From the NCBI GenBank assembly GCA_937886715.1, contig CAKZZD010000020.1, positions 20,591 through 84,590 on the forward strand: 64,000 nucleotides of DNA, read 5' to 3'. The position numbers and the translations under genes were made by a program. Below, piece after piece: positions 8,811-44,662 of this stretch. This DNA is from an uncultured Bacteroidales bacterium (GTDB lineage Bacteria > Bacteroidota > Bacteroidia > Bacteroidales > P3). The notes under the pieces are model-generated. The model did not search any database. It was given only the letters and a program-made list of their open reading frames with translations, and had not been told where the DNA came from. The first letter of the stretch is position 1; every line of letters begins with the position of its first letter.

Positions 8811-9332
8811 ATGCACAAAATGCCCAACGACGAGACACCCCACTGGTACGCCATGCGCGTCTACCACAACCGCAGCAAAATGCTGACGGAAACGCTCTCG
8901 GACGACGGCATTGAGTATTTCGACCCGTCGGAGGCCATCGCCTCGCTGCTGTTCGTGCATTGCGACGAGCACTACATCGCCGATTTGGGGTCTCGCTATT
9001 TCGACCGCGTGTGGATCTACCGCCGCACCGGCTCGCGGGTGCCTGCAGTAGTGCCCGACCGCGAGATGGAGGTGTTCCGCTTCGTGGTGACGGCAGGCAA
9101 GCAGGGGCTGACATTCTTGGGCGACGACCGGCCGGAGTATCACCAGGGCGACCGCGTAGTGGTCACCGACGGCCCGTTCAAAGGTGCCGAAGGGCACATC
9201 AAACGCATCAAACGCGACCGACGGCTGATTGTCAGCATCGACGGCGTGGTGGCAGTGGCCACCACATATATCCATCCCAAATTCTTGAAGAAAGTCGACA
9301 TGCCTGAGCCCACTGGGCGCTTCCGGATATGA
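8811..9332 (+). CDS. upxY: UpxY-family (NusG-like) transcription antiterminator
   Basis: It has an NGN-like N-terminus (HWYAMRVYHNRSK) and a KOW motif (GDRVVVTDGPFKGAEGHIKRI). It is the first gene of a long co-directional polysaccharide locus. Confidence 0.85.
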   Translation: MHKMPNDETPHWYAMRVYHNRSKMLTETLSDDGIEYFDPSEAIASLLFVHCDEHYIADLGSRYFDRVWIYRRTGSRVPAVVPDREMEVFRFVVTAGKQGLTFLGDDRPEYHQGDRVVVTDGPFKGAEGHIKRIKRDRRLIVSIDGVVAVATTYIHPKFLKKVDMPEPTGRFRI

Positions 9333-10495
9333 AGACACCGCTGTTCCACCTGCAATACGAGCTCGACCAGCCCTACACCGAAAGGGGCACCGAGTCGGGT
9401 GCGAAACTGTTCACCGACGAGATCGACGACCCCGTCGTGCGCCGTTGTCTGGAGACCACCGGCAAGATGGGGCAAAAGGAGCTGGCCCGGTGGCTGCAGC
9501 GCGAACACGAATCGATCAAGGACAAGGTCTACGTCACGCCGCTGACCACCTACACGCCCGAAGCACTCGACTACAGGCTCGAAGGCATCAGCCCCGCACT
9601 GGTCTACATCTCCCGTCCGCTGCACACAATCATGATGCTCGACGAGTTCCTCCACGAGGCCAACGTGCACCTTGAAACCGGTGCATGGATCAGCTGCCAC
9701 TCGATGACGTCGGTGCTGAAGCGCAAGCTGCTGATGAAGCGCTACCCCTGGGGCATACGCCACGTGGCGGCCGCGGCGCACTATATGTGGCACCGGGTGT
9801 GCCCGAAGCTGGGACTGACACGCAAGCTGTATTTCTCCATCACCGGCGGCAAAAACCGCACCTTCAACCGGGTGGAGATCCTGGGACGGCTCTATCGTGC
9901 CGGCTTCGAGGTGAAGGACGAGCAGTTCCGCGAGGGCGAGTTTTTTGTCATCGCGCAAAAGGTAAAGCCGCCCGTCGAGGACAAGGCACCCACGGGTTCG
10001 CCCATCATCCACCTCCGCCGCGTGGGACTGAACGGCAAGCCCATCGTGGTCCACAAGTTCCGCACCATGTACACCTACTCGGAGTACATCCAGTCGTACA
10101 TCTACCGTTATCAGAACCTGGACAACGGCGGCAAGTTCAAGAACGACTACCGGGTGAACTTCTGGGGCAAGATCCTGCGCAAAAGCTGGCTCGACGAGTT
10201 GCCGATGGTGTGGAACATGATCCAGGGCGACATGAAACTGGTGGGCGTGCGCCCGTTGAGCCAGCAGTATTTCAGCCTCTACACGCCCGAGATGCAGGAG
10301 CTCCGCACCCGCACCAAGCCCGGCCTGCTCCCGCCGTTCTATTACGACGCCGTCACGCCGGAAAGCATCGACGATGTGCAAGCCTCTGAACGCCGCTACC
10401 TGGAAGCCTACCTCAAAGCGCCGTTCCGCACCGACTGGCGCTACTTCTGGGGCATCGTGGGCAACATCGTCTTCCGTAACAAGCGCTCGAAGTAA
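9329..10495 (+). CDS. Initiating sugar transferase (Bac_transf polyprenyl-phosphate glycosyl-1-phosphate transferase core) with an atypical soluble-looking N-terminal domain
   Basis: The C-terminal half has IIHLRRVGLNGKPIVVHKFRTM, WLDELPMVWNMIQGDMKLVGVRP and KPGLL. There is an ATGA overlap with upxY. Confidence 0.75.
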   Translation: MKTPLFHLQYELDQPYTERGTESGAKLFTDEIDDPVVRRCLETTGKMGQKELARWLQREHESIKDKVYVTPLTTYTPEALDYRLEGISPALVYISRPLHTIMMLDEFLHEANVHLETGAWISCHSMTSVLKRKLLMKRYPWGIRHVAAAAHYMWHRVCPKLGLTRKLYFSITGGKNRTFNRVEILGRLYRAGFEVKDEQFREGEFFVIAQKVKPPVEDKAPTGSPIIHLRRVGLNGKPIVVHKFRTMYTYSEYIQSYIYRYQNLDNGGKFKNDYRVNFWGKILRKSWLDELPMVWNMIQGDMKLVGVRPLSQQYFSLYTPEMQELRTRTKPGLLPPFYYDAVTPESIDDVQASERRYLEAYLKAPFRTDWRYFWGIVGNIVFRNKRSK

Positions 10496-10634
10496 CTCTC
10501 GCAGTGGACTTCAACAATTTGCCTCGGAGAGGCCACCCTCACGAAACACAATAAACACCCATACATAAGTACGGCACTGCAAAATAGCAGAACCATAAGC
10601 ATGTCGGGGACATGCAACAAAGCGATTTCATCCA

Positions 10635-11546
10635 ATGAAGCAAGACAATAAAAACTTCGACTCTTCGGCTCCCCAATCTTTCGACCATTCGACATCCAAC
10701 GAGGGCTGGACTACTGTCATCAAGCCGAAGGACAAGTTGCTGTCGGTCGACTTCGGCGAACTGTGGCGCTACCGCGACCTCTGCTCGCTGTTTGTCAGGC
10801 GCAATATCACCACGCAGTTCAAGCAGACGGTGCTTGGCCCGTTGTGGTATGTCCTGCAGCCGATGATCACGGTGGTGATGTATATGGTGGTGTTCGGCAA
10901 CATTGCCAAAATACCCACCGACGGACTTCCTCAGCCGCTGTTCTACCTGAGCGGAATCTGCCTCTGGCAGTATTTCAGCGACTGTCTGAACAAGACCTCC
11001 TCAACGTTTGTGTCGAACGCCAGCATCTTCGGCAAAGTCTACTTCCCACGACTCATCGTGCCCATCTCCAACGTCATCTCCAACCTGCTCCGCTTTGGCA
11101 TCCAGTTCGCCCTTTTTCTGGTGGTGTACGCCGTCTATCAGATTTTCATCATCCCCGGACAGATCCACACCAATTGGTATGCCCTGATGCTGCCCGTGTT
11201 GGTGGCCATGCTGGCCGGCTTGGCGCTGGGTTTCGGAGTGCTGTTTTCCAGCCTGACCACAAAGTATCGCGACCTGCAGCTGCTGCTGGGCTACTTCGTC
11301 AGCCTGTGGATGTATGCCACACCGGTGATCTATCCCTTGAGCACCATCCACAACAACACGCTGCGCTTCATCATGTCGCTCAACCCCCTGACAGGCATCG
11401 TCGAAGCCTTCAAGTATGGCTTCCTCGGCGAGGGTGTCTTCAGCTGGGGTCTGCTGGGCTACAGCTTCGCCTTCATGGTAGTGCTGCTGGCCATCGGCGT
11501 GGTGCTCTTCAACCGGGTGCAACGCACCTTCATGGACACCGTCTGA
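10635..11546 (+). CDS. wzm: ABC-2 type polysaccharide export permease (Wzm/TagG-like)
   Basis: The sequence ELWRYRDLCSLFVRRNITTQFKQTVLGPLWYVLQPM is followed by six hydrophobic segments. Confidence 0.85.
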   Translation: MKQDNKNFDSSAPQSFDHSTSNEGWTTVIKPKDKLLSVDFGELWRYRDLCSLFVRRNITTQFKQTVLGPLWYVLQPMITVVMYMVVFGNIAKIPTDGLPQPLFYLSGICLWQYFSDCLNKTSSTFVSNASIFGKVYFPRLIVPISNVISNLLRFGIQFALFLVVYAVYQIFIIPGQIHTNWYALMLPVLVAMLAGLALGFGVLFSSLTTKYRDLQLLLGYFVSLWMYATPVIYPLSTIHNNTLRFIMSLNPLTGIVEAFKYGFLGEGVFSWGLLGYSFAFMVVLLAIGVVLFNRVQRTFMDTV

Positions 11547-11548: not shown

Positions 11549-12586
11549 ATGGCAACCATACAACAGCTGGCATACGGACTGCTGGTGCCCGCCGTGAACG
11601 GTGAGACGCCGCAAGGCGCGCTCTTCGACAACCTGGACACCGGCCAATGGGCGCAGCTGTTCCGCCTGATGCGGCAGAACAATGTGGTGGCGCTGACAGC
11701 CGCATCGGTGGCTCAGCTGGGCGAGCAGGTGCCTCGCAGCATCAAAATGCCGTGGTTGATGGAACGCGAAAAAGCGGCCAGCCGCTACCGCATGCAGGCC
11801 GACGTCGAGCACGACATCAAAGCGTTGATGCAGGAGCACGGCATCAAATGCATGACCCTTAAAGGGACACACCTGTCCCGCTACTACCCCACACCTGAGT
11901 GTCGCGAGTTCGGCGACCTGGACCTCTACTTCTTCGACCGGCAGGCCGATGCCGACCGTCTGATGGCCGACGAGCACGGCGTCGCAATCAGCAACGACGC
12001 CCACCACCACACGAAGTATGTCTACCGCGGCGTCACGGTGGAAAGCCACTACAATTTCGTCAACGTCCACACCCCCCGCAGCAACCGCCGCTACGAACAG
12101 CTGCTCAAAAGCCTGGCACCTTCGCCCACCTTCGAGCTGCTGTTCATGCTGCGCCACGTGGCGGTACACTTTGCGGCCAGCCGCATCACGCTGCGCGACC
12201 TGACCGATTGGCACCTCGCCACCCGGCAATTGGAGGGTTCCGTCGACTGGGACACGGTACGTAAGGCCGCCAAAGACTTCGGCATGGCGCCTTTCGCCGA
12301 TGCGCTGACCTCCATCGTGAGCCGTCGTTTCAACCATGAAATACCTCTCCGCTTTGCCCCCGAAAACGACATCGCCGAAAAGGTGGAGCACGATATGCTC
12401 TTTGGCAGTCCGCAGAGCGAGGAATACCCCGCCAATGGCTGGGGTAGGCTATCCTGGAAGCTGCGCCGCTACCGTGCCAACCGATGGAAACAGCGTCTCG
12501 TCTTCAACGACTCGCCGCTGAGCCTGCTCCTCACCAGCCTCGGCTCCCACTCTCGCAACCCGCATAGCATCCTGCATAAGATATAA
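11549..12586 (+). CDS. Uncharacterised nucleotidyltransferase-family protein (NTP_transf_5-like)
   Basis: Frame of ORF 10763..12586. The N-terminal part of that ORF overlaps wzm out of frame. The sensible start is [12 protein letters not shown] at 11549. The GDLDLYF motif is present. Confidence 0.55.
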
Positions 12587-12596: not shown

Positions 12597-13664
12597 ATGA
12601 AAAAAGCCCTTATCACTGGCATCACAGGCCAAGACGGCAGCTATCTGGCCGAATTTCTCATCGAAAAAGGCTACGAGGTGCACGGCATCCTGCGTCGCAG
12701 CAGTTCGTTCAACACTGGGCGCATCGAGCACCTGTACCTCGACGAATGGGTGCGCGACATGCACCAGAAGCGCCTGGTGGAGCTGCATTGGGGTGACATG
12801 ACCGATAGCAGCAGTCTCATCCGCATCATCAGCGAGGTGCGGCCCGACGAAATATACAACCTCGCAGCACAGAGCCACGTGAAGGTGAGCTTCGATGTGC
12901 CTGAATTCACGGCCGACACCGATGCCAACGGAGTGCTGCGCCTGCTTGAGGCTGTGCGCATCACGGGCCTCTCCCAGACATGCCGCATCTACCAAGCTTC
13001 TACGTCCGAGCTCTACGGCAAGGTGCAGGAAGTGCCACAGAGCGAGACGACACCCTTCTATCCGCGTTCTCCCTATGGCGTGGCTAAGCTTTACGGCTAC
13101 TGGATGATGAAGAACTACCGCGAAAGCTACAACATGTTCTGCTGCAATGGCATACTCTTCAATCATGAGAGCGAACGTCGCGGCGAGACTTTCGTCACAC
13201 GAAAAATCACGCTAGCCGCCGCCCGCATCTCACAAGGATTCCAGGACAAGCTCTACCTGGGCAACCTCAACGCTCTGCGCGACTGGGGCTACGCTAGGGA
13301 CTATGTGGAGTGCATGTGGCTCATCCTCCAGCAGGAAAAACCCGACGACTACGTCATTGCCACAGGCCAGTACCACACGGTGCGTGAATTCTGCACCCTG
13401 GCCTTCAAGGAAGCAGGTATCGAGCTACGCTGGGAAGGCGAAGGCATCAACGAGAAAGGCATCGAGGCCCAAAGCGGCAAGATCCTCGTCGAGGTCGACC
13501 CCAAATATTTCCGCCCCGCCGAAGTCGACCAGCTCCTCGGCGACCCCTCAAAGGCCAAACGCCTCCTCGGCTGGGACCCGCAGAAGACAAGCTTCGAAGA
13601 TCTCGTGAAGCTCATGGTGCAGCACGACATGAAAAAGGTCCGCCGCCTGCACCACACAGATTAA
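12597..13664 (+). CDS. gmd: GDP-mannose 4,6-dehydratase
   Basis: The sequence reads [47 protein letters not shown]..., with YGVAKLY and NHESERRG. Confidence 0.95.
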
Positions 13665-13666
13665 GG

Positions 13667-14139
13667 CACACAGAAACCACAGAAATCACAGAAAAACCGT
13701 CACCCCCACGACACCAAATGAAATAACATACGAAATTAGGGGTGCGATATACGATGTGTATAAAGAACTTGGGCCTGGACTATTGGAAAGCGTATACGAG
13801 GAGGCATTGTGTTTCGAACTAGAACAACGCGGATTATTTATTGAACGACAAAAACAGGTGCCTGTCATATACAAGGGCTGCAGACTAAAAACAGATTTAC
13901 GACTCGATATTCTTGTTGAGGACAAAGTTATCGTCGAGTTGAAATCTGTAGAGGAAATGAAAAAAGTGTTCGCCAAACAACTTTTGACATACCTTCGCTT
14001 GATGGACAAAAGAATTGGGATTCTGGTGAATTTCAATACTGACGACATCTTGACATCAATCACTCGAATAGCCAATTGATTATTGCTCAACAAAATGATG
14101 CGTCAGCATAATTTCTGTGATTTCCGTGATTTCTGTGTG
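13667..14139. mobile_element. 473-bp inverted-repeat-bounded cassette carrying a GxxExxY gene, filling almost the whole gmd-fcl gap (13665..14180)
   Basis: The left arm is cacacagaaaccacagaaatcacagaaa (13667-13694). The right arm is tttctgtgatttccgtgatttctgtgtg (14112-14139), whose reverse complement matches 26/28. Each arm consists of three CACAGAAAY 9-mers. Confidence 0.5.
13756..14079 (+). CDS. GxxExxY family protein (PD-(D/E)XK-like); conserved N-terminus lacks a canonical start
   Basis: It contains LGPGLLESVYEEAL, DILVEDKVIVELKSV and GILVNFN. In-frame upstream codons encode NEITYEIRGAIYD, which is the usual family N-terminus, but no ATG/GTG/TTG precedes the GTG at 13756. Confidence 0.7.
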   Translation: MYKELGPGLLESVYEEALCFELEQRGLFIERQKQVPVIYKGCRLKTDLRLDILVEDKVIVELKSVEEMKKVFAKQLLTYLRLMDKRIGILVNFNTDDILTSITRIAN

Positions 14140-14180
14140 ACAAAAAAATGTTTTAACTCCGTGAGAAACATCAGCAAGAA

Positions 14181-15110
14181 ATGAACAAAGACAGCAAGAT
14201 ATACGTAGCAGGGCATCGGGGAATGGTGGGCAGCGCCATTGTGCGGGAACTGCAACGCAAAGGATACAACAATATCATTACACGTACTCATGCTGAGCTG
14301 GATCTCACTCGCCAAGAGGCTGTAGAATCCTTTTTTGAAGCAGAGAAGCCCGAATATGTCTTCCTCGCTGCCGCCAAGGTAGGTGGCATCGCCGCCAACA
14401 GCGCAGCCTTGGCCGACTTCATGTACCAGAACATGATGCTGGAGATGAACGTCATCCATGCCGCCTGGCAGAATGGCGTCAAAAAGCTGGAGTTTCTCGG
14501 CAGCAGCTGCATCTACCCCCGCATGGCGCCTCAGCCCATGAAGGAGGACTGCCTGCTGACCTCGGCGCTGGAACCCACCAACGAAGCCTACGCCCTGGCC
14601 AAGATCAGCGGATTGAAATACTGCGAATACCTCAATCGGCAATATGGCACCGATTACATCTCCGTCATGCCGACAAACCTATATGGCCCCAACGACAACT
14701 ATCATCCCGAGCGCAGCCACGTGCTACCGGCCATGATCCGTCGTTTTCACGAGGCCAAGATGGCTGGTGCGGAGAGCGTCACCTGCTGGGGCGACGGCAG
14801 CGCGCTGCGGGAATTCCTCTACGTCGACGACCTCGCCGAGCTCTGCGTCTTCCTGATGAACAACTACAGCGGCGACGAGACCGTCAATGCCGGCACTGGC
14901 AAAGAGCTCACCATCCGCGAACTGGCCGAGACTGTAGCCAAAGTGGTTGGCTATGAGGGCAAAATACTGTGGGATGCCAGCCGGCCCAACGGCACTCCAC
15001 GCAAACTCCTCGACGTTAGCAAGGCCACCCGCCTCGGCTGGACCTATAAGACGGAGCTGGAAGAAGGCATCCGATTGGCCTACAACGACTACAAAAACAC
15101 CATTATATAA
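14181..15110 (+). CDS. fcl: GDP-L-fucose synthase (GDP-4-keto-6-deoxymannose 3,5-epimerase/4-reductase)
   Basis: It contains [32 protein letters not shown] and [11 protein letters not shown]. Confidence 0.95.
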
Positions 15111-15227: not shown

Positions 15228-16499
15228 ATGCCAACTGCCATAGAATTCAACAATATCAGCAAAATATACCGGCTCGGACTGGTGTCCACCGGCACGCTGA
15301 GCCATGATCTGAAACGCTGGTGGACGATGAATATCCGCCATCAGGAAGACCCCTACCTCACCATCGGCGAGACCAACGACCGCAGCACCAAAGGCGACAG
15401 CGACTACGTGTGGGCGCTGAAAGACATCGACTTCAAGGTAGAACAGGGCGACGTGGTGGGCATCATCGGCAAAAACGGCGCCGGCAAAAGCACCCTGCTG
15501 AAAATCCTCTCTAGGGTCACCGCCCCCACCACCGGCACCATCCGCGCCCGCGGCCGCATCGGCTCGCTGCTCGAAGTGGGCACAGGTTTCCACCCCGAGA
15601 TGACAGGGCGCGAGAATATCTACATGAATGGTGCCATCCTCGGCATGACCAAACAGGAAATCACGCGCAAATTGGACGAGATTGTCGACTTCAGCGGCTG
15701 CGAACGCTATATCGACACCCCTGTGAAGCGCTACAGCAGCGGCATGATGGTGCGCCTCGGCTTCGCCGTCGCCGCCCACCTCGACCCCGAGATCCTCGTC
15801 GTCGACGAAGTCCTCGCCGTCGGCGATGCCGAATTCCAGAAGAAAGCCATCGGCAAGATGCAAGATGTCAGCCGCGGTGAAGGCCGCACGGTGCTGTTCG
15901 TGAGTCACAATATGGCTAGCGTCCAGACACTCTGCGCCAGAGGAATTTTATTGGCAAATGGTACTATAAAGAAAATAGGCACTATTGGTGAAGTAATATC
16001 AGAATATCTATCTACTAACGCATATATTTCATACGATGATATTATGGATAGGTTTAAAGGGAAACAGCTCCCACAAGCCTATTTTACCAAAATTGATTTT
16101 ACTGATGTAGAGGGAAACGTGTGCAAGGCCGCAATATCAGGAGAAACTCTGAATATTGTAATTAGATACATTTCCAATCTCAGACGGCCATTTCACATAA
16201 ATATAGGCATTTACAATCAGGCAGGAGAAAAAATATTACATTTAAGTTCAGAGTATTGTTTGGCAGAAATAGACTTCCAACAACAAGAAGGTACATTTGT
16301 ATTTACCTACAAAAAACTACCTCTACCCAAGGGAGAATACATTATTAACTTCACACTATGGTCTGGATACGAACGAATAGACTGGGTTAGAGATTGCGTA
16401 AAACTAAATGTGACTGAAGGGGACTTTTATGGCAATGGTAAATTACCTGATTCTAAAGAAAATAAAGTTTTAACAGAATATCTATGTCAACAAGTATAG
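15228..16499 (+). CDS. wzt: Polysaccharide ABC transporter ATP-binding protein with C-terminal glycan-binding beta-sandwich (Wzt-type)
   Basis: The nucleotide-binding domain has GIIGKNGAGKSTLLK, YSSGMMVRLGFA and ILVVDEVLAVGD. An extra tail of about 170 aa (ETLNIVIRY...GEYIINFTLWS) is typical of the Wzt C-terminal domain. Confidence 0.85.
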   Translation: MPTAIEFNNISKIYRLGLVSTGTLSHDLKRWWTMNIRHQEDPYLTIGETNDRSTKGDSDYVWALKDIDFKVEQGDVVGIIGKNGAGKSTLLKILSRVTAPTTGTIRARGRIGSLLEVGTGFHPEMTGRENIYMNGAILGMTKQEITRKLDEIVDFSGCERYIDTPVKRYSSGMMVRLGFAVAAHLDPEILVVDEVLAVGDAEFQKKAIGKMQDVSRGEGRTVLFVSHNMASVQTLCARGILLANGTIKKIGTIGEVISEYLSTNAYISYDDIMDRFKGKQLPQAYFTKIDFTDVEGNVCKAAISGETLNIVIRYISNLRRPFHINIGIYNQAGEKILHLSSEYCLAEIDFQQQEGTFVFTYKKLPLPKGEYIINFTLWSGYERIDWVRDCVKLNVTEGDFYGNGKLPDSKENKVLTEYLCQQV

Positions 16500-18919: not shown

Positions 18920-18973
18920 CAATCACCGTTGGTAAGCGAAAACATGTAATTCAGATACAACTTAGAATTGATC

Positions 18974-19855: not shown

Positions 19856-19863
19856 TCAAGACT

Positions 19864-21827: not shown

Positions 21828-21838
21828 ACATTCTTTTT

Positions 21839-22281
21839 CTCAATCAGATTTTAAAAGAATCATGGATAAGGACTTGATATATACTATTATTGGATGCGTA
21901 CTGAAAGTTCATTCAAAATTAGGTCCGGGCCTTTTAGAGTCTGTTTACCAAAAAGCATTGATGATTGAATTGGACAATGAATGCCTTTCGGCAGAAGAGG
22001 AAGTGCCATTAGAAATAATGTATGATGGAAATAACCTCGGATTAGGTTTTAGAATGGACATCTTGGTTGAAGGCTAGATTATCCTTGAACTAAAATCCGT
22101 ATCAGCTTTAGAAAAAGTACACTTCAAGCAGTTACAAACATACCTGAAACTATCGAACAAACCTTTGGGATACCTAATAAATTTCAACGTGGACAAAATG
22201 GTTATCGGCTCAAGCATCCATCGCATCACAAACATCAACTATCAAGAATAACTCTTTTATAATCTTTTACAATCTGATTGA
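21839..22281. mobile_element. 443-bp inverted-repeat-bounded cassette carrying a GxxExxY pseudogene
   Basis: The left arm is ctcaatcagattttaaaagaatc (21839-21861). The right arm is tcttttataatcttttacaatctgattga (22253-22281), whose reverse complement tcaatcagattgtaaaagatt matches 19/21. Confidence 0.5.
21862..22251 (+). pseudogene. GxxExxY family gene interrupted by an in-frame TAG
   Basis: The sequence MDKDLIYTIIGCVLKVHSKLGPGLLESVYQKAL...DILVEG is followed by TAG at 22075-22077. The same frame then continues IILELKSVSALEKVHFKQLQTYLKLSNKPLGYLINFN... to TAA at 22249-22251. Confidence 0.75.
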
Positions 22282-22292
22282 AATTTAAGTCC

Positions 22293-23306: not shown

Positions 23307-23314
23307 TATAAAAT

Positions 23315-23413: not shown

Positions 23414-23422
23414 ACAAACAAT

Positions 23423-37196: not shown

Positions 37197-37732
37197 CAAT
37201 CATAACAAAATTTGATCAGATTGATTGTTCAGCTTGGGACCAACTGGTTGAAAACTCACCGGTATCCTCATGGTTCCAAACCAGAGAAGCATACAACTTT
37301 TTCGACAGTCTCAATTTTGCTGAATCTTTTGTAGTTGCAGTACAGGAAAATGATATATTACAAGGAGTCACTGTAGGATATATTCAATGTGACGGTTCCC
37401 TGCTAAAACAAAGATTGTCTCGCAGAGCCATTATTACCGGAGGCCCTTTGTTATCAGCACAAATCTCAAAGAGACAGTTAACAAGCATGCTTCTTGCGGT
37501 AAAAGAACTACTCAATACACATCACTGCATCTACATTGAAACAAGGAATCTTAACGATTATTCTTATTGGCGAAATGTATTCGAAAAATGTGGATTCAAA
37601 TATGTTCCACATTATAATTTCCATATCACTTCGTTGGTTTCTTCCAGGAAAACGACCGACCCATACGGCAATCGGTCATCGCCTATCAGGTGGTCAAGCA
37701 TAGAGACGGATCCATCACCTTCCGCCTTGTAG
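37193..37732 (+). pseudogene. FemAB/GNAT-like acyltransferase gene, truncated after about 143 codons
   Basis: The N-terminus (WDQLVENSPVSSWFQTREAYNFF...IYIETRNLNDYSYWRNVFEKCGFKYVPHYNFHI) looks family-like. From about 37620 the frame reads low-complexity TSLVSSRKTTDPYGNRSS, which is out-of-frame sequence of a different gene remnant. Confidence 0.55.
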
Positions 37733-37875
37733 TCAACGACCAGTATAATACTGATATTGAGCACTACATCATCAACTTCTGGCAACAGCAACTCAACTAA
37801 CCTATCACGATCGAAATTGTCAACGATATTCCCCTTATGCAGAATAACAAACGTCTCACCATAGTAGAAGATTAA
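37618..37875 (+). pseudogene. 3' remnant of a second CapK-like ligase gene with an in-frame TAA
   Basis: The frame gives FPYHFVGFFQENDRPIRQSVIAYQVVKHRDGSITFRLVVNDQYNTDIEHYIINFWQQQLN, then TAA at 37798, then PITIEIVNDIPLMQNNKRLTIVED. This aligns with the C-terminus of 35916..37196 (YQIRLHNDKSLTILLV...HWSQLLSTQVNVLITDNIPLMKNNKYLTIVKDR). Confidence 0.7.
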
Positions 37876-37878
37876 CCC

Positions 37879-38376
37879 ATGCCAAGCAGAGAGATACTCG
37901 AATATCACGGGCTATATACTCCTCTGGGGAGGATAAAATACACCCTCATCCAATTGTGGCGTTTCAGCCTCTCACGTCTTGCTTTTTTCATCCCTTTCAA
38001 GGGTTGGCGAGCCACCTTGTACCGCTGGAGCGGCATACATATTGGCAAACGCGTTTACATCGGACATGATATGCTTTTCGACCGTGCATTCCCAGAACAA
38101 ATCACCATTGGTGACGACACTGCCATTGGCGACCGGTGCACCATCACCGCCCATGGATGCATCCCGACACAAACACCTCTGAAAGAAATATATCCACTTG
38201 AGGTAAAACCTGTCAACATCGGCAATCGCGTGTGGATAATGCCCAACGTGACAATCATCTATGGCGTGACCATAGGCGACGAAGCCGTCGTAGCCACAGG
38301 TGCTGTAGTAACACGTGATGTACCCCCTCGCACGTTGGTCGCAGGCATCCCCGCCAAAGTTATCAAACAACTATGA
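37879..38376 (+). CDS. Hexapeptide-repeat (LbH) O-acetyltransferase
   Basis: It contains IGKRVYIGHDMLF, IGDDTAIGDRCTI, IGNRVWIMPNVTI and IGDEAVVATGAVV. Confidence 0.85.
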   Translation: MPSREILEYHGLYTPLGRIKYTLIQLWRFSLSRLAFFIPFKGWRATLYRWSGIHIGKRVYIGHDMLFDRAFPEQITIGDDTAIGDRCTITAHGCIPTQTPLKEIYPLEVKPVNIGNRVWIMPNVTIIYGVTIGDEAVVATGAVVTRDVPPRTLVAGIPAKVIKQL

Positions 38377-39407
38377 AAGTTCTTTTCCAACTGGGACATC
38401 CCGCCCATTTTCACCTGTTCAAAAACACCATCGCCGACCTGCAGCATGATGGGATTCAAACCTATATCCTCATCCGAAAAAAAGACATCCTTGAAGATTT
38501 GTTGAAACAATCAGCGATGCCCTATGTAAACATCCTTCCAAGTGGGAAAAAATCTGTCTTTACCTTGATGCTGAGATTGTGGCGAGTATTCCGCTTCACT
38601 ATCACACATCATGTCGACGTCCTCGTCGGATCCACCCCCGAGGTGGCACAGGTAGCATGGTTGCTCAGACGTCGCTCGGTGATTCTGGCCGAAGACGATG
38701 CTGCCATCGTCCCTCAATTCATCAAAGCGGTGAAACCTTTTGTCGACAACTACCTGTCCCCTGTCTCGTGCAACAACGGCCCCCTTGAATCAGCCACCAC
38801 CCACTACGAGGGATTTCATAAACTGGCGTACCTTCACCCCTCACGATTCTCTCCTGACCCAGCTGTAGTAGACAAATACTTCCCCCACAATAGCACATTT
38901 TTCCTGCTTCGATTTGCCAAACTGAATGCCTACCACGACGTGAGTGCCGATGCCCACGGCATCAACGACAGCATAGCGCAAAAACTCATACAGATACTTT
39001 CCCCTCATGGCACAGTATTCATCTCTTCAGAGCGTGAACTGAGTCCCTATCTGGAACAATACAGACTCAAAATCAATCCCTTGGACATTCACCACATCAT
39101 GGCTTTTGCCGCCCTGTATATAGGCGACAGCCAAAGCATGGCAGTAGAAGCCGCCATGTTAGGCACGCCATCTATCCGTTTCAACGACTTCGCTGGCCGC
39201 ATCGGCGTGTTGGAAGAATTGGAAAAAAAATACAAATTGACCATTGGAATTCCTTCCAATGACACACCATTGCTATACCAAACTATTGAAAGCATGGTCG
39301 ATACAGACAATCTTAAAGAATTGTTCCAGGCTAGAAGAAAAAAGATGCTGGAAGACAAAATAGATGTGGCCACCTACATCACAAACTTTATCGAAAATTT
39401 AAAATGA
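38373..39407 (+). CDS. DUF354-family protein (GT-B-like, function unknown)
   Basis: MKVLFQLGHPAHFHLFKNTI is the characteristic DUF354 N-terminus. GDSQSMAVEAAMLGTP is also present. Confidence 0.7.
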   Translation: MKVLFQLGHPAHFHLFKNTIADLQHDGIQTYILIRKKDILEDLLKQSAMPYVNILPSGKKSVFTLMLRLWRVFRFTITHHVDVLVGSTPEVAQVAWLLRRRSVILAEDDAAIVPQFIKAVKPFVDNYLSPVSCNNGPLESATTHYEGFHKLAYLHPSRFSPDPAVVDKYFPHNSTFFLLRFAKLNAYHDVSADAHGINDSIAQKLIQILSPHGTVFISSERELSPYLEQYRLKINPLDIHHIMAFAALYIGDSQSMAVEAAMLGTPSIRFNDFAGRIGVLEELEKKYKLTIGIPSNDTPLLYQTIESMVDTDNLKELFQARRKKMLEDKIDVATYITNFIENLK

Positions 39408-40144
39408 TGGACTTCACCATCGAGAAATATCGCGCGCTGCTGATGGCACTGCAGAAGCACTCCTGCTTCTGTATCAGACATGATGTGGATCTGCGACCAA
39501 GCTACTCGCTGCGTGTCGCACAAGTAGAGTCATCCATGAAAATGACCTCCACCTATTATTTCCGAACAGTTCCCGAAAGCTACGACGAAAATATCATCCA
39601 ACAGATTGTTTCCTTGGGACATAAAGCAGGCTACCACTACGAATGCCTGACAACATGCCACGGGGATATGGAAGCTGCATACAAAGACTTCTGCAACAAT
39701 TTGGAAAAATTACGAAAGGTGGTACCCATCGATGCTGCTTGTGCCCACGGCAGCCCCAGATCACCCTACGACAGCCAAGATCTCTGGAAAAGATACTCTT
39801 ACCGAGAATTAGGCATCACTCACGAGTCAATGATCGACACCGATTTTTCGCAAACGCTATATCTGACCGACACCGGTCGGAGATGGGACGGATGGCGCGT
39901 CAGCGTCAGAGACAAGGTGCCTCAATATCAGGAGGAATGGATAGCAAAAGGTCTGGCATTTCACTCTACCGACGACATCATCCGCGCACTCAACAATCCT
40001 CAGCACCCCATCCACCAATACAAACTGCTCGTCAACACCCACCCCCAACGCTGGATGCCATTCGGCATCAGGTGGATATACGAAGCCGTGGGTCAAAACT
40101 TGAAAAACATCGTAAAAAGAATCATCGTATGCTCAAAATCTTGA
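39404..40144 (+). CDS. Hypothetical protein, possibly a polysaccharide-deacetylase-like fold
   Basis: The pattern CIRHDVD...YYFR...AHG is reminiscent of CE4-like proteins. The assignment is weak. Confidence 0.35.
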   Translation: MMDFTIEKYRALLMALQKHSCFCIRHDVDLRPSYSLRVAQVESSMKMTSTYYFRTVPESYDENIIQQIVSLGHKAGYHYECLTTCHGDMEAAYKDFCNNLEKLRKVVPIDAACAHGSPRSPYDSQDLWKRYSYRELGITHESMIDTDFSQTLYLTDTGRRWDGWRVSVRDKVPQYQEEWIAKGLAFHSTDDIIRALNNPQHPIHQYKLLVNTHPQRWMPFGIRWIYEAVGQNLKNIVKRIIVCSKS

Positions 40145-41202
40145 CTATCGTCGGCGCACGCCCCCAATTCATTAAGGCCGCAGCTTTGAGCCACGCCATC
40201 GCAGAGCATTTCTCCGATGCAGTCCATGAAGATATTCTCCACACAGGACAGCACTACGACGATGCCATGTCCGAGCAATTTTTCACCGAACTCGACATTC
40301 CCCGTCCCGCCTTCAACCTCAATGTCGGATCCGGCCCCCACGGGGCTCAAACAGCCCGAATGCTGGCCGGGACCGAGGAGGTGCTGACCAACGGGCATTA
40401 CGATGGGGTGGTCGTATACGGCGACACCAACTCGACTTTGGCCGGGGCACTGGCTGCTGCAAAACTCCATATTCCTGTATACCATATCGAGGCCGGCCTG
40501 CGTTCGTTCAACCGAGACATGCCCGAAGAAATCAACCGCGTGGTCACAGACCATATTTCCACCCTACTGTTTGCCCCCACACACACGGCGGTAGCCAATC
40601 TGGAACATGAAGGGTTTGACAACGAAAGCATTATCTTCTCGGGCGACATCATGTTGGACAACGTGCTGCACTACGCCAACAAAAACATAGACAACGGAGA
40701 CCAAATCATACTCGCCACCGTCCACCGCGACTTCAACACCGACTCGCCAGAGCGTCTAACTAAAATACTTTCAGCACTCGACGCAATAGGCAAACAATAT
40801 AGCCTTCCCGTCATCTTCCCGGTACATCCGCGTACAAAAAAAGCCATCGAGCATATCGGCGGCCTTGGACGCTACATCCACATTCAGCCGGTCCAACCCC
40901 TCTCCTACCTCGACACTCAAACCATGCTTCACCGGTCACAAATAGTGCTCACCGATAGCGGCGGGCTGCAGAAGGAGGCTTTCTTCTGCGGCAAACCCTG
41001 CGTGATTCTGCGTCCCGAAACAGAGTGGACGGAGATCGTCGATGCCGGTGCCGCCATCACAGCCGATGCCAACCCAAACCAAATCATATCTGCATGTAAA
41101 GCATTATGGAACAAGTCCATAACAGCACCCATCCAATTCGGAGACGGCCATGCAGCACTAAAGATTCTAGAAGCAATTCTGCAGAAACAACATTGCGTAT
41201 AG
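40129..41202 (+). CDS. UDP-N-acetylglucosamine 2-epimerase, second paralog
   Basis: Frame of ORF 39643..41202, with the real start MLKILTIVGARPQFIKAAAL at 40129. HIEAGLRSFNRDMPEEINR and DSGGLQKEAFF are present. Confidence 0.85.
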   Translation: MLKILTIVGARPQFIKAAALSHAIAEHFSDAVHEDILHTGQHYDDAMSEQFFTELDIPRPAFNLNVGSGPHGAQTARMLAGTEEVLTNGHYDGVVVYGDTNSTLAGALAAAKLHIPVYHIEAGLRSFNRDMPEEINRVVTDHISTLLFAPTHTAVANLEHEGFDNESIIFSGDIMLDNVLHYANKNIDNGDQIILATVHRDFNTDSPERLTKILSALDAIGKQYSLPVIFPVHPRTKKAIEHIGGLGRYIHIQPVQPLSYLDTQTMLHRSQIVLTDSGGLQKEAFFCGKPCVILRPETEWTEIVDAGAAITADANPNQIISACKALWNKSITAPIQFGDGHAALKILEAILQKQHCV

Positions 41203-41387: not shown

Positions 41388-42179
41388 ATGGTTAAACTTC
41401 GCACTATAAAAACATTGATCTTTGCCGCACTGATTGCGGTTGCGGCAACATCATGCATCACTTCCCGCAGGGCCAACTACCTCCAGGACATGACGCAAGG
41501 GTCTCAAATAGAGCTCGAAAACAAGTTTGAGGCCAAAATTGCCCCCTACGACGAACTGAGCATCATAGTCACCAGTCCCTCGGACAAAAAATTGGCCGAG
41601 CCTTTCAACATTGCCAACCTGGCTGGTACCAACGTTGTTTCTTCTGGGCAACGCAATGGCTATCTGGTGGACGTGAACGGAAACATCGAATTCCCCATCC
41701 TGGGCACATTACACGTGGAAGGCATGACCCGCCTGCAACTGCAGGAAACTATCTCAAATATGCTGATCACAAAGGGCCATATCCATGATCCCTACGTGAT
41801 GGTGAGATTCAACAATTTCAAGGTCTTCTTCCTTGGCAACGGCACCGGCAGGGTGCTCAACATCCAAAACGAACGCTGCACCTTCCTCGAGGCGCTGGCT
41901 ATGCTGAACGATGTGGGCATCTACACCCGCCGCGACCATATTGGCGTGATGCGCGAGGTGAACGGCAAAATGGTGATGCGCTATCTTGACCCGCGCTCCT
42001 CAGACGTCTTCAACGACCCCTTCTTTATGCTGCAGCAGAACGATTTCATCATTGCCGAAACCGTCAACGCCGGCACAGCCCGTTCAGAGTTCGCCTATTG
42101 GACTGGCCTTATCGGCACCGTGGTCTCGGTCACTTCGCTGATCACCTCTATCATCCTGTACAAATCTATCTCAAAATAG
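41388..42179 (+). CDS. wza: Wza-like polysaccharide export outer-membrane lipoprotein
   Basis: It has a lipobox (VAATSC). Motifs YDELSIIV and GNIEFPILGTLHVEGMTRLQL are present, and the C-terminus is hydrophobic. Confidence 0.85.
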   Translation: MVKLRTIKTLIFAALIAVAATSCITSRRANYLQDMTQGSQIELENKFEAKIAPYDELSIIVTSPSDKKLAEPFNIANLAGTNVVSSGQRNGYLVDVNGNIEFPILGTLHVEGMTRLQLQETISNMLITKGHIHDPYVMVRFNNFKVFFLGNGTGRVLNIQNERCTFLEALAMLNDVGIYTRRDHIGVMREVNGKMVMRYLDPRSSDVFNDPFFMLQQNDFIIAETVNAGTARSEFAYWTGLIGTVVSVTSLITSIILYKSISK

Positions 42180-42196
42180 CTTAGACCACTACCCTA

Positions 42197-44662
42197 ATGG
42201 CAGAAGATTCCAACAACAAAAACACATCATTCCTCGACGACAAGAATGCTCCGAAGATGCACATCAAGGATGTGCTGTTCATCATCCTGCGCAATCTGCA
42301 CTGGCTGATCCTCTGTGGCGCTGTAGGAGCACTTATCGCCGGCTACTATGTCCGCCACCAGAACCGCGTCTACGAGAGCAACGCCCGCATCCTGATCAAG
42401 GGCTCGTCAACCAGCAGCGAAAACGCCATGCGCGAAGCATCGGTGCGCAACATGTTTGCCACCCGGTCGCTTTACAACAGCTCGATCAACAACGAGATGA
42501 TGCTGTTGACATCCAAGAATGCACTGAACGAGGTGGTCAAAAACCTGAACCTCAACGTCACATACACCTGCAAGACCAAAATTGTCAACCGTACAAAGGA
42601 CCTCTATGGCGAATCGCCCTTCGTCATCGACTTCATCGACAACGGCGATGACGACTATGTCTCCTTTGACGCCACCGCAAAGAATGCCCGTTCGATAACC
42701 CTCGACATCCCCAACTACAACCAGCAGACTGTCTACTTCGAAGACACCACAAATACCCCCTTCGGCCGCATCGTGGCCCACAAAACCTGGTACTATTCGA
42801 GCGACTACTACGGCACGGTGATCCACGTGACACACAAGAGCCTGAACGCCACTTCCGACTACTATCGCTATGCACTCCGTGTGTCCCGCAACGACGACAT
42901 GAACACGATCATCAACATTTCGCTGAACGACGCTTCGCCCATCCGCGCAGCAGAAGTCGTCAACGAGGTGATCCGTGTCTACAACGAGGACGCCATCAAG
43001 GACAAACGTCGCATCATCGCTGAAACGCACGACTATATCAACAGCCGTCTTCAACTGCTGCAATCCGACCTTGGCATTCAGGAAAATGCCTTGGCCGACT
43101 TCAAACGCGAGAACCAACTGATCGACATCTCGTCGTTTGGCCAGTCCTATCTCGAATCCAGCATCCAATCGTCTACCGAAATCGAGCGCCTGAAAAAGCA
43201 GCTGTCGCTTTCGCGTCTTCTGATCCAGATCAACGAATCAAGCGACAGACCCCAACTGATTCCCAACAGCTTCGGCCTCGACGATGCCAACATCATGGCA
43301 CATATCAACAAGTACAACAACCTGGTGCTTGAGCTGGAAAGCTACGAGAAAAACCCCAACAATCCGACAGCCCAAACCAAAATGGCCGAACTGAACACCA
43401 CTCGCAGCAACATGAACCGCCTGCTCGACGTGTATATCGGCACCATTCAGGAACGCATCGCCGACGCTCAAATCGTGGCCACCTCAGCACAATCAAAGAT
43501 GAGCCAAGTGCCACGCCAGCAGTTGTATCTTGAAAACCTGGAACGTCTGCAGAAAATCAAAGAGGAGCTCTACCTCCACCTGCTCAGCCGTCGTGAAGAG
43601 CTGATGATCAGCCAGCCCACCATTGAGCCTAACGGCAAGGTGCTCGACCCGGCCCGCATCAACCGCACACCCATATCTCCCAACGAAACTCGCACCACAG
43701 CGCTGGGACTGCTGGTAGGACTGCTCATCCCGATAGCAGTATTCTTTATCCGCCGCATGCTCGACACCAAGGTGAAATACCACAACGATGTACTCCAAGC
43801 CACATCAGCACCTTTCCTATGCGAGATACCCGCCCGCGAAAAGAAAGACGACCGCATTCTGGTAGTCACCGACCACGACCACAACGACACCATGTCCGAG
43901 TCATTCCGTCTGTTGAGAGCCAAAGTCGACTTCCTCGGAAACAAGGAAAGTTCCGATGGAAAAGTGCTGATGATTACATCGTTGCTGGCAAGCATGGGCA
44001 AGACATTCATCTCCAGCAACCTCTCTGCCAGCTTCGGCATCGCCGGCAAGAAAGCGATTATCCTCGACCTCGACTTGCGCAAGGGATCCCTCACTCGTCA
44101 GTTCTATTCTCGCCGCCACCCCGGCCTCTCCAACTATCTTGCCAACAAGACCGACGACTGGAAGTCGCTGACCAAATCCAACATCATCTGCAAAGGTGTC
44201 GACGCCCTCTTCTCCGGTCCTATCCCGCCTAACCCGACAGAGCTGCTCGGCAACGGCCGTCTGGACACCCTGGTGGCAGAACTGAAGAAAAACTACGAAT
44301 ACATCATCTTCGACACCGCTCCTACTGGCCTTGTCGTCGACTCCGACATCATCAAACATCTGGTTGACAACACTCTCTTCGTCATCCGCTCTAACAAGTT
44401 CGACAAACGAATGCTCGCCAACATCGACACCATGTACCAAGACCACTCGTTCCCGAACATGGCCATCGTCCTCAACGATGTCCACTACAAGAAGATGACC
44501 CCGTATGAAAAGAAGTACGGCTATGGTTATGGCTATGGCTACGGATATGGCTATGGTTATGGCTACGGTTACGGCTATGGCTACGGTTACGGCTATGGCT
44601 ACGGCAACGAAGAAAAACTTGATCCCGAAGAGAAAGTTCAGGAAGAATCTGATAATAAATAA
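42197..44662 (+). CDS. wzc: Wzc-like co-polymerase / BY tyrosine kinase with a (YG)15 C-terminal tyrosine cluster
   Basis: It has two TMs flanking a coiled-coil periplasmic domain, a Walker A TSLLASMGKTFISSNL, then LDLDLRKGS and IIFDTAP, and ends in 15 YG repeats. Confidence 0.9.
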   Translation: MAEDSNNKNTSFLDDKNAPKMHIKDVLFIILRNLHWLILCGAVGALIAGYYVRHQNRVYESNARILIKGSSTSSENAMREASVRNMFATRSLYNSSINNEMMLLTSKNALNEVVKNLNLNVTYTCKTKIVNRTKDLYGESPFVIDFIDNGDDDYVSFDATAKNARSITLDIPNYNQQTVYFEDTTNTPFGRIVAHKTWYYSSDYYGTVIHVTHKSLNATSDYYRYALRVSRNDDMNTIINISLNDASPIRAAEVVNEVIRVYNEDAIKDKRRIIAETHDYINSRLQLLQSDLGIQENALADFKRENQLIDISSFGQSYLESSIQSSTEIERLKKQLSLSRLLIQINESSDRPQLIPNSFGLDDANIMAHINKYNNLVLELESYEKNPNNPTAQTKMAELNTTRSNMNRLLDVYIGTIQERIADAQIVATSAQSKMSQVPRQQLYLENLERLQKIKEELYLHLLSRREELMISQPTIEPNGKVLDPARINRTPISPNETRTTALGLLVGLLIPIAVFFIRRMLDTKVKYHNDVLQATSAPFLCEIPAREKKDDRILVVTDHDHNDTMSESFRLLRAKVDFLGNKESSDGKVLMITSLLASMGKTFISSNLSASFGIAGKKAIILDLDLRKGSLTRQFYSRRHPGLSNYLANKTDDWKSLTKSNIICKGVDALFSGPIPPNPTELLGNGRLDTLVAELKKNYEYIIFDTAPTGLVVDSDIIKHLVDNTLFVIRSNKFDKRMLANIDTMYQDHSFPNMAIVLNDVHYKKMTPYEKKYGYGYGYGYGYGYGYGYGYGYGYGYGYGYGNEEKLDPEEKVQEESDNK
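44516..44605 (+). repeat. Coding hexanucleotide repeat (TAY GGN)x15
   Basis: The sequence is tacggc tatggt tatggc tatggc tacgga ... tacggc. Synonymous codons are mixed. Confidence 0.95.

Follow-up and report, generated by a model that had tools for sequence, protein, structure and literature searches.

A 64-kb stretch of DNA from an uncultured Bacteroidales bacterium (contig CAKZZD010000020.1; all 64,000 nucleotides are hereafter called the window) carries a surface-polysaccharide locus in which an ABC exporter of the Wzm/Wzt type stands together with a Wza-like outer-membrane polysaccharide export (OPX) lipoprotein and a Wzc tyrosine kinase of the polysaccharide co-polymerase class 2a (PCP-2a), and in which we recognised neither a Wzx flippase nor a Wzy polymerase. 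On balance, we think it somewhat probable that the locus encodes an ABC-transporter-dependent pathway for a surface (capsule-like) polysaccharide that makes use of this kinase-bearing PCP-2a/OPX pair. Judged from gene content and comparative genomics, the combination looks like an undescribed but common export route of Bacteroidota, not a one-off fusion. The window originates from a bioreactor metagenome (ENA ERZ922530, k127_21580). Its source contig is 108.6 kb long, of which we examined ~72 kb, i.e., the 64-kb window and ~8 kb past its left end. Genes were called by listing and translating open reading frames (ORFs), together with Pfam and NCBIfam profile scans.

Gene content and extent of the locus

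The locus occupies positions 8811-46174 (~37 kb) as an unbroken run of ~35 plus-strand genes. It begins with UpxY, a phosphoglycosyltransferase (PGT)-like enzyme, Wzm and Wzt with a Wzt_C domain, continues with glycosyltransferase and tailoring genes, and ends with WecB, Wza, Wzc and an OmpA-like protein. About 13 glycosyltransferases and tailoring enzymes lie between Wzt and WecB; the glycosyltransferase complement comprises six GT2 enzymes, WbsX, a FUT8-like enzyme, GT10, GT32, GT4, a GT1-like 334-aa protein and a DUF354-like protein. A preliminary description of this DNA had counted ~33 co-directional genes with 4-nt overlaps between 8811 and 44662. The common direction and the tight packing held up (4-nt overlaps at 9 gene pairs, overlaps of 16-17 nt at 3 more), but we place the end of the locus at ~46.2 kb and not at 44.66 kb, because the OmpA-like gene and a terminator follow Wzc. 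This terminator, a 14-bp, GC-rich hairpin at 46218-46249, 3' of the OmpA-like gene, is the sole strong intrinsic-terminator-like hairpin of the locus; none was found inside 8811-46174. The genes on which our reading depends are the following.

8811..9332, plus strand: UpxY-family transcription antiterminator, first gene of the locus (NCBIfam NF033644, 112.4 bits, cutoff 100; Pfam KOW)
9329..10495, plus strand: PGT-like bacterial sugar transferase, 388 aa (Pfam Bac_transf, 81.4 bits, cutoff 27)
10635..11546, plus strand: Wzm, ABC-2 permease (Pfam ABC2_membrane, 60.3 bits, cutoff 26.9; 5-6 hydrophobic segments)
15228..16499, plus strand: Wzt, 423 aa (ABC_tran, 78.7 bits; Wzt_C, 40.7 bits, cutoff 30.4)
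40129..41202, plus strand: WecB-type 2-epimerase, copy 2 (Pfam Epimerase_2, 337 bits; 64% identical to the WecB that precedes Wza in related locus L166)
41388..42179, plus strand: Wza-like OPX lipoprotein, 263 aa (Pfam Poly_export, 53 bits)
42197..44662, plus strand: Wzc, PCP-2a (Wzz and GNVR periplasmic regions, two membrane segments, P-loop tyrosine kinase, AAA_31)
44699..46174, plus strand: OmpA-like outer-membrane protein, which always follows Wzc in this clade

The earlier assignments of Wzm, of Wzt with a C-terminal binding domain, of Wza and of Wzc with a tyrosine cluster were confirmed by Pfam matches and, for Wzt and Wzc, by PDB matches as well. The closest solved relatives of Wzt are the Aquifex aeolicus WzmWzt transporter (E 6e-62, including part of the binding domain), TarH and mycobacterial RfbE, and its sequence assigns it to the O-antigen/teichoic-acid exporter type. 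Wzm reached 61 bits with the KpsM equivalog NF050053, below the cutoff of 300. Wzc, whose best solved relative is E. coli K30 Wzc (E 1.6e-38), carries the Walker motifs A (ASMGKT), A' (LDLDLR) and B (IIFDTAP) and a C-terminal (YG)n tyrosine cluster, with YG repeats at 44504-44623. Wza has a C-terminal hydrophobic helix, with hydropathy peaks at residues 7 and 239, and gave no match in a PDB sequence search. The OmpA-like protein (474-491 aa) is built of a signal peptide, an N-terminal region, a coiled coil and an OmpA domain; it recurs in relatives (18261-19712 on the minus strand in L002; from 21370 in L166) and may be the outer-membrane partner of the short 263-aa Wza.

The second WecB is the first gene of a conserved WecB-Wza-Wzc-OmpA block and not part of a redundant second pathway. 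With regard to GC content at third codon positions (GC3), values are 0.73-0.87 in the head genes, 0.69-0.74 in Wza, Wzc and OmpA, and 0.28-0.45 in an island at 15950-19900. We counted the match in codon composition between Wza/Wzc/OmpA and the head genes in favour of one joint pathway, and likewise the lack of a strong terminator-like hairpin inside the locus and of a plus-strand TAnnTTTG motif in the gap 5' of wza.

Absence of Wzx and Wzy

Among the locus proteins and the flanking ORFs scanned, no Pfam match was obtained to Wzx (Polysacc_synt, MurJ) or Wzy (Wzy_C, EpsG) families, and no scanned window protein matched the WaaL/Wzy_C O-antigen ligase family. Our six-frame hydropathy scan of the 64-kb window recovered only three true polytopic ORFs, namely Wzm, an MBOAT O-acyltransferase and a 467-aa protein; a further flippase-type ORF with 10-14 membrane segments was not found there. 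These results bear out the initial impression that Wzx and Wzy are not recognisable in the locus. Wzb was not seen in the locus either, and KpsS/KpsC (Capsule_synth) had no Pfam match among its proteins. The 467-aa protein is located as follows.

33392..34795, plus strand: GT-C-like polytopic protein, 467 aa, with ~10-11 membrane segments

The preliminary description had called it GT-C-like and the only large polytopic protein of the locus. The first part agrees with a weak Pfam signal and with a fold search on a poor model, but the second overlooked the MBOAT. Specifically, the match to Glyco_transf_22 (21.1 bits, E 2e-4) lies under the cutoff of 23.8 and is accompanied by a weak PMT_2 signal; the homologue in L012, which is 37% identical and likewise follows GT32, exceeds both cutoffs (PMT_2, 26.6 vs 26.1; Glyco_transf_22, 28.4 vs 23.8). 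More than 2200 homologues were detected, the best 120 of which are all 467-469 aa long (119 at 71-76% identity and one at 97%), and one homologue is named a glycosyltransferase family 39 protein by NCBI. An AlphaFold2 model, built from a shallow 52-sequence alignment (71-97% identity), was poor (predicted local distance difference test, pLDDT, 55.6; predicted template modelling score, pTM, 0.57) and usable only at residues ~40-250. When this model was submitted to Foldseek, all matches with a probability of 0.9-1.0 were GT-C enzymes (STT3, PglB, PimE, AglB, Pmt4), although at E values of 0.066 or higher, so that they are qualitative; MurJ and WzxE remained at or below 0.15, and Wzy or WaaL were absent among the matches. 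A PDB-sequence profile search with the protein returned nothing relevant.

Considering sequence and model together, the 467-aa protein is likely, though not proven, to be a GT-C-like glycosyltransferase. It is not a Wzy, because its conservation is the opposite of that of a serotype-specific polymerase. The preliminary description had named a Wzy assignment of this ORF as an outcome that would speak against its own reading; neither the profiles nor the conservation nor the fold matches gave such an assignment.

Conservation among relatives and recurrence across Bacteroidota

Comparisons with related loci indicate that the window locus belongs to a conserved type which occurs in uncultured Bacteroidales of gut, rumen and digesters; the relatives in the genome collection are Cryptobacteroides, Colimorpha, RUG, RGIG and UBA metagenome-assembled genomes (MAGs). 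The type can be described as a constant head (UpxY-PGT-Wzm-NTP_transf_5-nucleotide-binding domain of Wzt), a variable centre and a constant tail (GT2-p334-GT32-GT-C-GT4-CapK...WecB-Wza-Wzc-OmpA), in which p334 is the GT1-like 334-aa protein. L086 (42% GC) has Wzt-WbsX-GT2-GT2-...-deacetylase-GT10-GT2-MBOAT/partner fragments-GT2-WecB-...-GT32-GT-C in the window order and at 58-87% identity. It was found by a metagenome scan with the L003 deacetylase, in which the other 79 loci were unrelated deacetylases. L012 (Candidatus Cryptobacteroides) has PGT-Wzm-Wzt...GT32-GT-C, and in L169 and L171/L172 the series UpxY-PGT(389 aa)-Wzm-NTP_transf_5-Wzt and glycosyltransferases are followed by the GT2-PDDEXK_3-GT2-deacetylase run seen in the window. 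As in the window, the tail is found on one strand in L166/L167 (GT2-p334-GT32-GT-C-PDDEXK_3-GT4-CapK-hexapeptide transferase-DUF354-like-p281-WecB-Wza-Wzc-OmpA).

The preliminary description had proposed a hybrid of two or more fused loci. The features that it cited are all present, i.e., the GC mosaic, repeats at gene borders (a 29-nt repeat in four copies, none expected) and two WecB genes (32% identity). Nonetheless, comparative genomics does not support the fusion, as the head-to-tail architecture recurs in L086, L012, L166/L167, L169 and L171/L172, and the GC mosaic appears to reflect cassette exchange within one conserved locus type.

Neither is the pairing of the two export modules a peculiarity of the window. 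A survey with one genome per species yielded at least 598 Wzt relatives, the best of which were almost all from Bacteroidota, and the best 80 Wzt loci were compared over up to 10 kb either side (63 of the 80 with >5 kb upstream). Wzc lies upstream of Wzm-Wzt, on the same strand each time, in 18 of these 80 loci, and 16 have Wza too. Contiguous Wza-Wzc-Wzm-Wzt cassettes occur in L019 and L073 (Bacteroidia MAGs) and in L027, L057, L071, L077 and L085 (Flavobacteriaceae), among others; in L079 (Runella) all four are present with other genes interspersed. In L019 and L073, Wzc shows the complete Wzz, GNVR and kinase architecture. Polytopic ORFs of the 18 loci were permeases, acyltransferases, MBOATs, one PMT_2 GT-C, one TatC and some without a family; a threshold as lax as E <= 1 gave no match to Wzx or Wzy families for any of them. 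That the pairing recurs in many genera is our chief reason to think that the two modules cooperate in export.

Wzt, its binding domain and the adjoining gene

The nucleotide-binding domain of Wzt extends to ~16022 and the C-terminal carbohydrate-binding domain (Wzt_C) covers ~16023-16499. Exactly at this junction (15950-16022), GC content drops from ~0.60 to 0.36, and GC3 is 0.73 in the nucleotide-binding domain vs 0.28 in the binding domain.

15950..19900, plus strand: low-GC island of ~4 kb (~36-41% GC vs 55-60% around it)

Besides the Wzt binding domain, this island contains a fusion of 4Fe-4S, FrhB-like and polysaccharide pyruvyltransferase domains (16484-18919) and a GT2 gene (18974-19855). 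Across the 80 related Wzt loci, close relatives share 75-87% identity in the nucleotide-binding domain but not in the binding domain. Only L006 has a clearly similar binding domain (47%), and it is also the only locus with a homologous pyruvyltransferase fusion (43%), which lies directly 3' of Wzt as in the window. Related Wzt proteins are 405-436 aa long and have room for the C-terminal domain, with the exception of the truncated L038 (263 aa). Given the GC break at the domain junction and the fact that L006 shares both genes, our comparison points to a joint exchange of the binding domain and the cap enzyme as one cassette.

In Wzt systems with a binding domain, the addition of a non-sugar cap terminates the chain and makes it competent for export. 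The gene after wzt is usually tightly coupled to it in related loci, and the 76 genes found directly 3' of Wzt include 14 methyltransferases (11 FkbM and 3 other; L171 has a methyltransferase there), 5 hexapeptide acyltransferases, 3 pyruvyltransferases and 3 sulfotransferases. Since the pyruvyltransferase fusion follows wzt in the window and fits this logic, the chain-terminating cap recognised by the Wzt binding domain would probably be a pyruvate ketal. To the best of our knowledge, a pyruvate ketal has not been described as a Wzt-recognised terminator.

Proposed pathway

From the gene content, we propose that UpxY would permit read-through of the ~37-kb operon. The glycan would be assembled wholly in the cytoplasm on a lipid carrier by the ~13 glycosyltransferases, from precursors that would include GDP-fucose (Gmd/Fcl) and N-acetylmannosamine-type sugars (WecB). 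A non-sugar cap would halt chain growth and be recognised by the C-terminal domain of Wzt; in the window, this cap would probably be a pyruvate ketal, attached by the pyruvyltransferase fusion. The finished chain would cross the inner membrane via Wzm/Wzt. In the periplasm, an MBOAT pair could O-acylate it and the conserved GT-C enzyme could modify it, before it would pass to the Wzc (PCP-2a)/Wza (OPX)/OmpA-like unit for outer-membrane crossing. The transfer of the chain between Wzm/Wzt and Wzc/Wza, the pyruvate cap, the part played by the GT-C enzyme and the capsule nature of the product are what we infer in this scheme.

Comparison with known export systems

Wzc-type tyrosine autokinases are the textbook partners of Wzy polymerases, and ABC-dependent capsules are those of KpsMT, KpsE and KpsD with an anchor of lipid-linked 3-deoxy-D-manno-octulosonic acid (Kdo). 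A 2025 review assigns PCP-2a proteins to Wzy-dependent and PCP-3 proteins to ABC-dependent systems (PMC12220298). The preliminary description considered the pairing in the window unusual, which is right insofar as Wzc-type kinases normally occur with Wzy systems (PMC12220298), but OPX/PCP proteins as such are standard in ABC capsules and, taken as a class, are recognised as partners in either route (PMC9603273). The characterised Bacteroidetes capsules are Wzx/Wzy-dependent (B. fragilis, Capnocytophaga PMC5156936; P. gingivalis lipopolysaccharide PMC3684754). In open-access papers and bioRxiv, we found no description of Wzm/Wzt with a binding domain together with Wza/Wzc in Bacteroidota; PMC13622650 was considered as a precedent and set aside, as it concerns E. 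coli O9.

The Wzm/Wzt systems with a binding domain (E. coli O9a/O8, Klebsiella O12, Aquifex aeolicus and the Geobacillus S-layer glycan, the latter class also being exported by a Wzt with binding domain (PMC2943079)) resemble the window locus in having Wzm and a Wzt_C-bearing Wzt but no Wzx/Wzy, in a cap-enzyme gene beside the exporter, in a conserved nucleotide-binding and a variable binding domain and, as we would expect for the window, in completion of the polymer in the cytoplasm. S-layer glycan systems share in addition an initiating enzyme of the WbaP family. Unlike all of these, the window locus is led by UpxY and bracketed by Wza/Wzc/OmpA, has no WaaL or Wzy_C-type oligosaccharyltransferase, has a pyruvate ketal as its suspected cap, and encodes a PGT-like enzyme without a membrane helix.

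Group 2/3 capsules (E. coli kps; KpsMT, KpsE and KpsD) likewise combine an ABC exporter with PCP and OPX proteins. In E. coli, regions 3 and 1 flank region 2 much as the export genes of the window surround a serotype-variable centre, which in the window includes the Wzt binding domain. In contrast with kps, the window has no KpsS/KpsC for a beta-Kdo linker, its transporter is of the Wzm/Wzt type with a binding domain and not KpsMT, its PCP is a PCP-2a tyrosine autokinase and not a PCP-3, and its OPX protein is a short, 263-aa Wza-like and not a KpsD-like one. Group 1/4 capsules and the capsular polysaccharide loci of B. fragilis, B. thetaiotaomicron and Capnocytophaga are alike in the UpxY head, in Wza and a Wzc with tyrosine cluster, and in the many glycosyltransferase and tailoring genes within one long operon; as in group 4 capsules, the OPX/PCP-2a pair of the window would receive a polymer that is also fit for another fate. 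These systems differ from the window locus, which has no Wzx, Wzy or UpxZ, in which no Wzb was seen, and which has an ABC exporter instead. Cross-talk between ABC and Wza/Wzc components has been proposed for cyanobacteria (PMC4594306, PMC7885315, PMC6562117), where both types of component (Synechocystis KpsM/KpsT and Wza/Wzc) take part in exopolysaccharide production. However, the cyanobacterial genes are scattered and Wzx/Wzy homologues are also there, whereas the window and its relatives have one locus or a four-gene cassette and no Wzx/Wzy in it.

A second Wza-Wzc pair outside the locus

1..3071, minus strand: second pair, Wza2 (2187-3071) and Wzc2 (1-2183, continuing beyond the window)

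This pair is divergent from the locus and lies 5.7 kb upstream of it. In the source contig and in relatives (L173 10001-20885; L175-L177), its unit continues with sugar-nucleotide genes only (RmlA/C/D-like, WbpA/B/D/E-like and WbpM-like). The left-hand end was seen in close relatives only, where the last gene of the unit, after those for sugar nucleotides, encodes a sulfatase-family membrane protein. Neither a glycosyltransferase nor a flippase, a polymerase or an ABC transporter was found in the unit. The Wza2 protein is identical in the window and in L174, a locus from a closely related strain that was assembled independently from another sample. The WecB-type enzymes of the main locus resemble WbpI, and, as speculation, the Wza2 unit might provide this locus with diacetamido-uronic acid precursors.

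Alternative explanations

Several observations weigh against a single pathway. Some of them would fit two independent neighbours, in which a UpxY-Wzm/Wzt system makes an O-antigen-like or glycoprotein glycan with its ligase encoded elsewhere, and WecB-Wza-Wzc-OmpA serve another polymer whose Wzx/Wzy are elsewhere. A 185-nt AT-rich gap with sigma-70-like matches precedes wza. In L002-L005, the tail genes are followed by OmpA-like and Wzc genes on the opposite, convergent strand, so that Wzc-OmpA must be a separate transcription unit there. OPX/PCP pairs of this lineage need not adjoin assembly genes, since Wza2-Wzc2 has none nearby, and the Wza/Wzc at 41-44 kb might thus serve another polymer. 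To our knowledge, all characterised Wzt proteins with a binding domain are exporters of O-antigens or S-layer glycans. In Enterobacteria, wza-wzb-wzc capsule loci adjoin wzm/wzt O-antigen loci (PMC6128206). Moreover, Wzx, Wzy or WaaL could lie elsewhere in the genome, outside the ~72 kb of the source contig examined, the Wzx/Wzy negative in related loci covers 10 kb either side of Wzt, and two polytopic ORFs there (411 aa in L019, 489 aa in L079) have no family assignment. A PGT-like enzyme without the re-entrant membrane helix of characterised PGTs also weighs against the proposed scheme. Against two separate systems, the Wza/Wzc/OmpA block adjoins this locus type in both orientations across relatives (the export block keeps its adjacency but can be inverted), and many Bacteroidota genera have co-directional, contiguous Wza-Wzc-Wzm-Wzt genes without a Wzx/Wzy in the 10 kb either side. 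No Wzx/Wzy was found in the ~72 kb of contig examined and no WaaL/Wzy_C in the window, and the nearest other polysaccharide unit comes with an OPX/PCP pair of its own. We consider two independent neighbours rather unlikely, yet the main alternative to the joint ABC-transporter and Wza/Wzc pathway.

Two further explanations appear much weaker. Wzy proteins are notoriously divergent and often missed by Pfam, and the 467-aa protein, with a pLDDT of 55.6, fold matches at E >= 0.066 and a sub-cutoff Pfam match, might be taken for a divergent Wzy, or a flippase might have gone unrecognised, with Wzm/Wzt as an accessory. We regard this as very improbable considering that the protein is highly conserved and belongs to the constant tail, where a serotype-specific polymerase would be expected to vary, that its L012 homologue passes the PMT_2 and Glyco_transf_22 cutoffs, that the high-probability fold matches are all GT-C, and that the window has no other many-segment candidate of flippase size. 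Sharp GC jumps, one of them inside wzt, and recombination scars (the CapK remnant, an orphan ORF and a PDDEXK_3 pseudogene) could also point to a metagenome misassembly or a very recent accidental fusion in this strain only. This is the least credible explanation of all: the exact 423-aa Wzt occurs on at least two contigs, L174 reproduces the left part, the full architecture recurs in many other assemblies, and the ORFs across the junctions are all intact, with L006 having an equal Wzt-pyruvyltransferase junction.

Other features of the locus

The upxY leader is ~1.1 kb long (7680-8810).

7857..8661, plus strand: leader upstream of upxY, with two similar AT-rich promoter-like blocks that match consensus

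Each block (7857-7905 and 8616-8661) holds the Bacteroidetes -7 motif TAnnTTTG (at 7898 and 8636); a C-rich stretch lies between them, and an 11-nt tandem repeat is present at 8383-8426. A convincing pair of inverted repeats, as in invertible promoters, was not found flanking the leader. UpxZ is not present as the second gene; the PGT-like transferase occupies this place instead and overlaps upxY by 4 nt. Its catalytic core (residues 223-358) keeps the LDELP and GDMKLVGVRP motifs and the catalytic Asp-Glu dyad. The ~220 N-terminal residues occupy the place of the re-entrant helix of PglC/WbaP, but no such helix was found, as no 19-residue window reaches a mean hydropathy of 1.2, and Pfam and PDB alignments to WbaP and PglC begin past their membrane helix. 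This 388-389 aa form is also present in L169, L171 and L174, and no other initiating enzyme (e.g., WecA-like) was found in the window. Further head genes are as follows.

11549..12586, plus strand: NTP_transf_5 protein, constant member of the head (Pfam PF14907, 143 bits)
12597..15110, plus strand: GDP-fucose supply cassette, Gmd (12597-13664) and Fcl (14181-15110) by Pfam

The NTP_transf_5 gene has an equal position in L011, L169, L171 and L174. Between Gmd and Fcl lies an intact PDDEXK_3 gene (13756-14079). In L174 (1-4272, aligned with window 8811-16499), Wzt directly follows NTP_transf_5, and because the Gmd-PDDEXK_3-Fcl insertion is missing there, the cassette differs between strains.

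19864..27044, plus strand: centre, partly variable (Pfam; partial synteny with L086, L166 and L169)
27216..28631, plus strand: MBOAT, AlgI/DltB-like polytopic O-acyltransferase (Pfam MBOAT, 94 bits)
28635..29567, plus strand: MBOAT partner, 310 aa, signal-anchored (N-terminal hydrophobic segment)
29564..30670, plus strand: WecB-type UDP-GlcNAc 2-epimerase, copy 1 (Pfam Epimerase_2, 409 bits)
30706..33385, plus strand: start of the tail, GT2 (30706-31665), GT1-like 334-aa protein p334 (31662-32666) and GT32 (32663-33385) by Pfam
34925..40144, plus strand: remainder of the tail, GT4, CapK, orphan ORF, hexapeptide acyltransferase, DUF354-like protein and conserved 246-aa protein
22253 (plus), 23316 (minus), 23384 (plus) and 34822 (plus): 29-nt repeat TCTTTTATAATCTTTTACAATCTGATTGA (4 matches vs 0.00 expected by chance)

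The centre encodes WbsX, GT2 (20958-21827), GT2 (22293-23306), a polysaccharide deacetylase, a FUT8-like protein, a GT10 fucosyltransferase and GT2 (26100-27044). The MBOAT and its 310-aa partner, which are likely a periplasmic O-acylation pair, are also found in L051 and as fragments in L086. In the tail, GT2, p334 and GT32 share 83%, 78% and 64% identity with L002 in conserved order, and the genes at 34925-40144 occur in equal order in L166 at 56-87% identity. The CapK remnant reported in the preliminary description does exist as a 3' fragment before the hexapeptide acyltransferase gene (37624-37872; by tblastn, 70% identical to residues 348-430 of L166 CapK), but the main CapK/PaaK-like adenylating enzyme gene (35916-37196) is full length. 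An orphan 179-aa ORF (37193-37732; GC 0.40) without homologues runs out of frame into this remnant. That it might be a remnant of the 356-aa FemAB-like gene of L002 was ruled out, as BLASTP gave no similarity.

A PDDEXK_3 pseudogene at ~21862-22230 is disrupted by a stop codon. Small PDDEXK_3 (GxxExxY-type) genes of low GC (0.40) recur between glycosyltransferase genes in related loci, in comparable places, at 1334-1723 and 11568-11966 in L166, 20163-20552 in L169 and 11320-11691 in L171. The repeat TCTTTTATAATCTTTTACAATCTGATTGA is intergenic (22253-22281; 23316-23344, minus; 23384-23412; 34822-34850), with a partial inverted copy near 21836-21860 (minus), and its plus-oriented copies end 11-75 nt 5' of start codons. 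Copies in inverted orientation lie on both sides of the PDDEXK_3 pseudogene and a GT2 gene, and copies are also found ahead of the deacetylase and GT4 genes. The repeat might act as a leader element or form a hairpin, or it might mark a cassette border. The CapK remnant with its orphan ORF, the broken PDDEXK_3 gene and the 29-nt repeats fit frequent recombination.

The locus lies in a neighbourhood of envelope biogenesis, with two OmpH/Skp genes and BamA downstream on the minus strand (46629-50392), and two additional OmpA-family genes and a GT4 gene are found farther downstream (56078-59719). Upstream of the locus, between MutS-like and M49 peptidase genes, a tRNA (5825-5912, minus) is the sole Rfam match in the window.

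Implications

If the joint pathway is correct, it would represent a new combination, that of an O-antigen-type ABC exporter gated by a binding domain with a Wzc/Wza translocon, and this combination would be widespread in Bacteroidota. We put forward more tentatively, as a possibility we would not yet call probable, that Bacteroidota commonly export a capped, lipid-linked polymer by Wzm/Wzt and hand it directly to Wzc/Wza with no Wzx/Wzy, which would amount to a third, undescribed capsule route. The Wzc phosphorylation cycle would then control export without controlling a polymerase, and a sharp question would be what Wzc phosphorylation acts on where no polymerase exists. The mosaic Wzt suggests a mode of serotype switching in which its binding domain and the cap enzyme (here the pyruvyltransferase) would be exchanged jointly as a serotype cassette. 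Several cultivable flavobacteria carry the four-gene cassette, among them Leeuwenhoekiella marinoflava DSM 3653, Salegentibacter echinorum DSM 24579, Flavobacterium lotistagni and Algibacter sp. R77976, and may offer a tractable test system. The recognition of capsule loci in gut, rumen and marine Bacteroidota would change as well, given that tools requiring Wzx/Wzy or Kps proteins would miss loci of this type.

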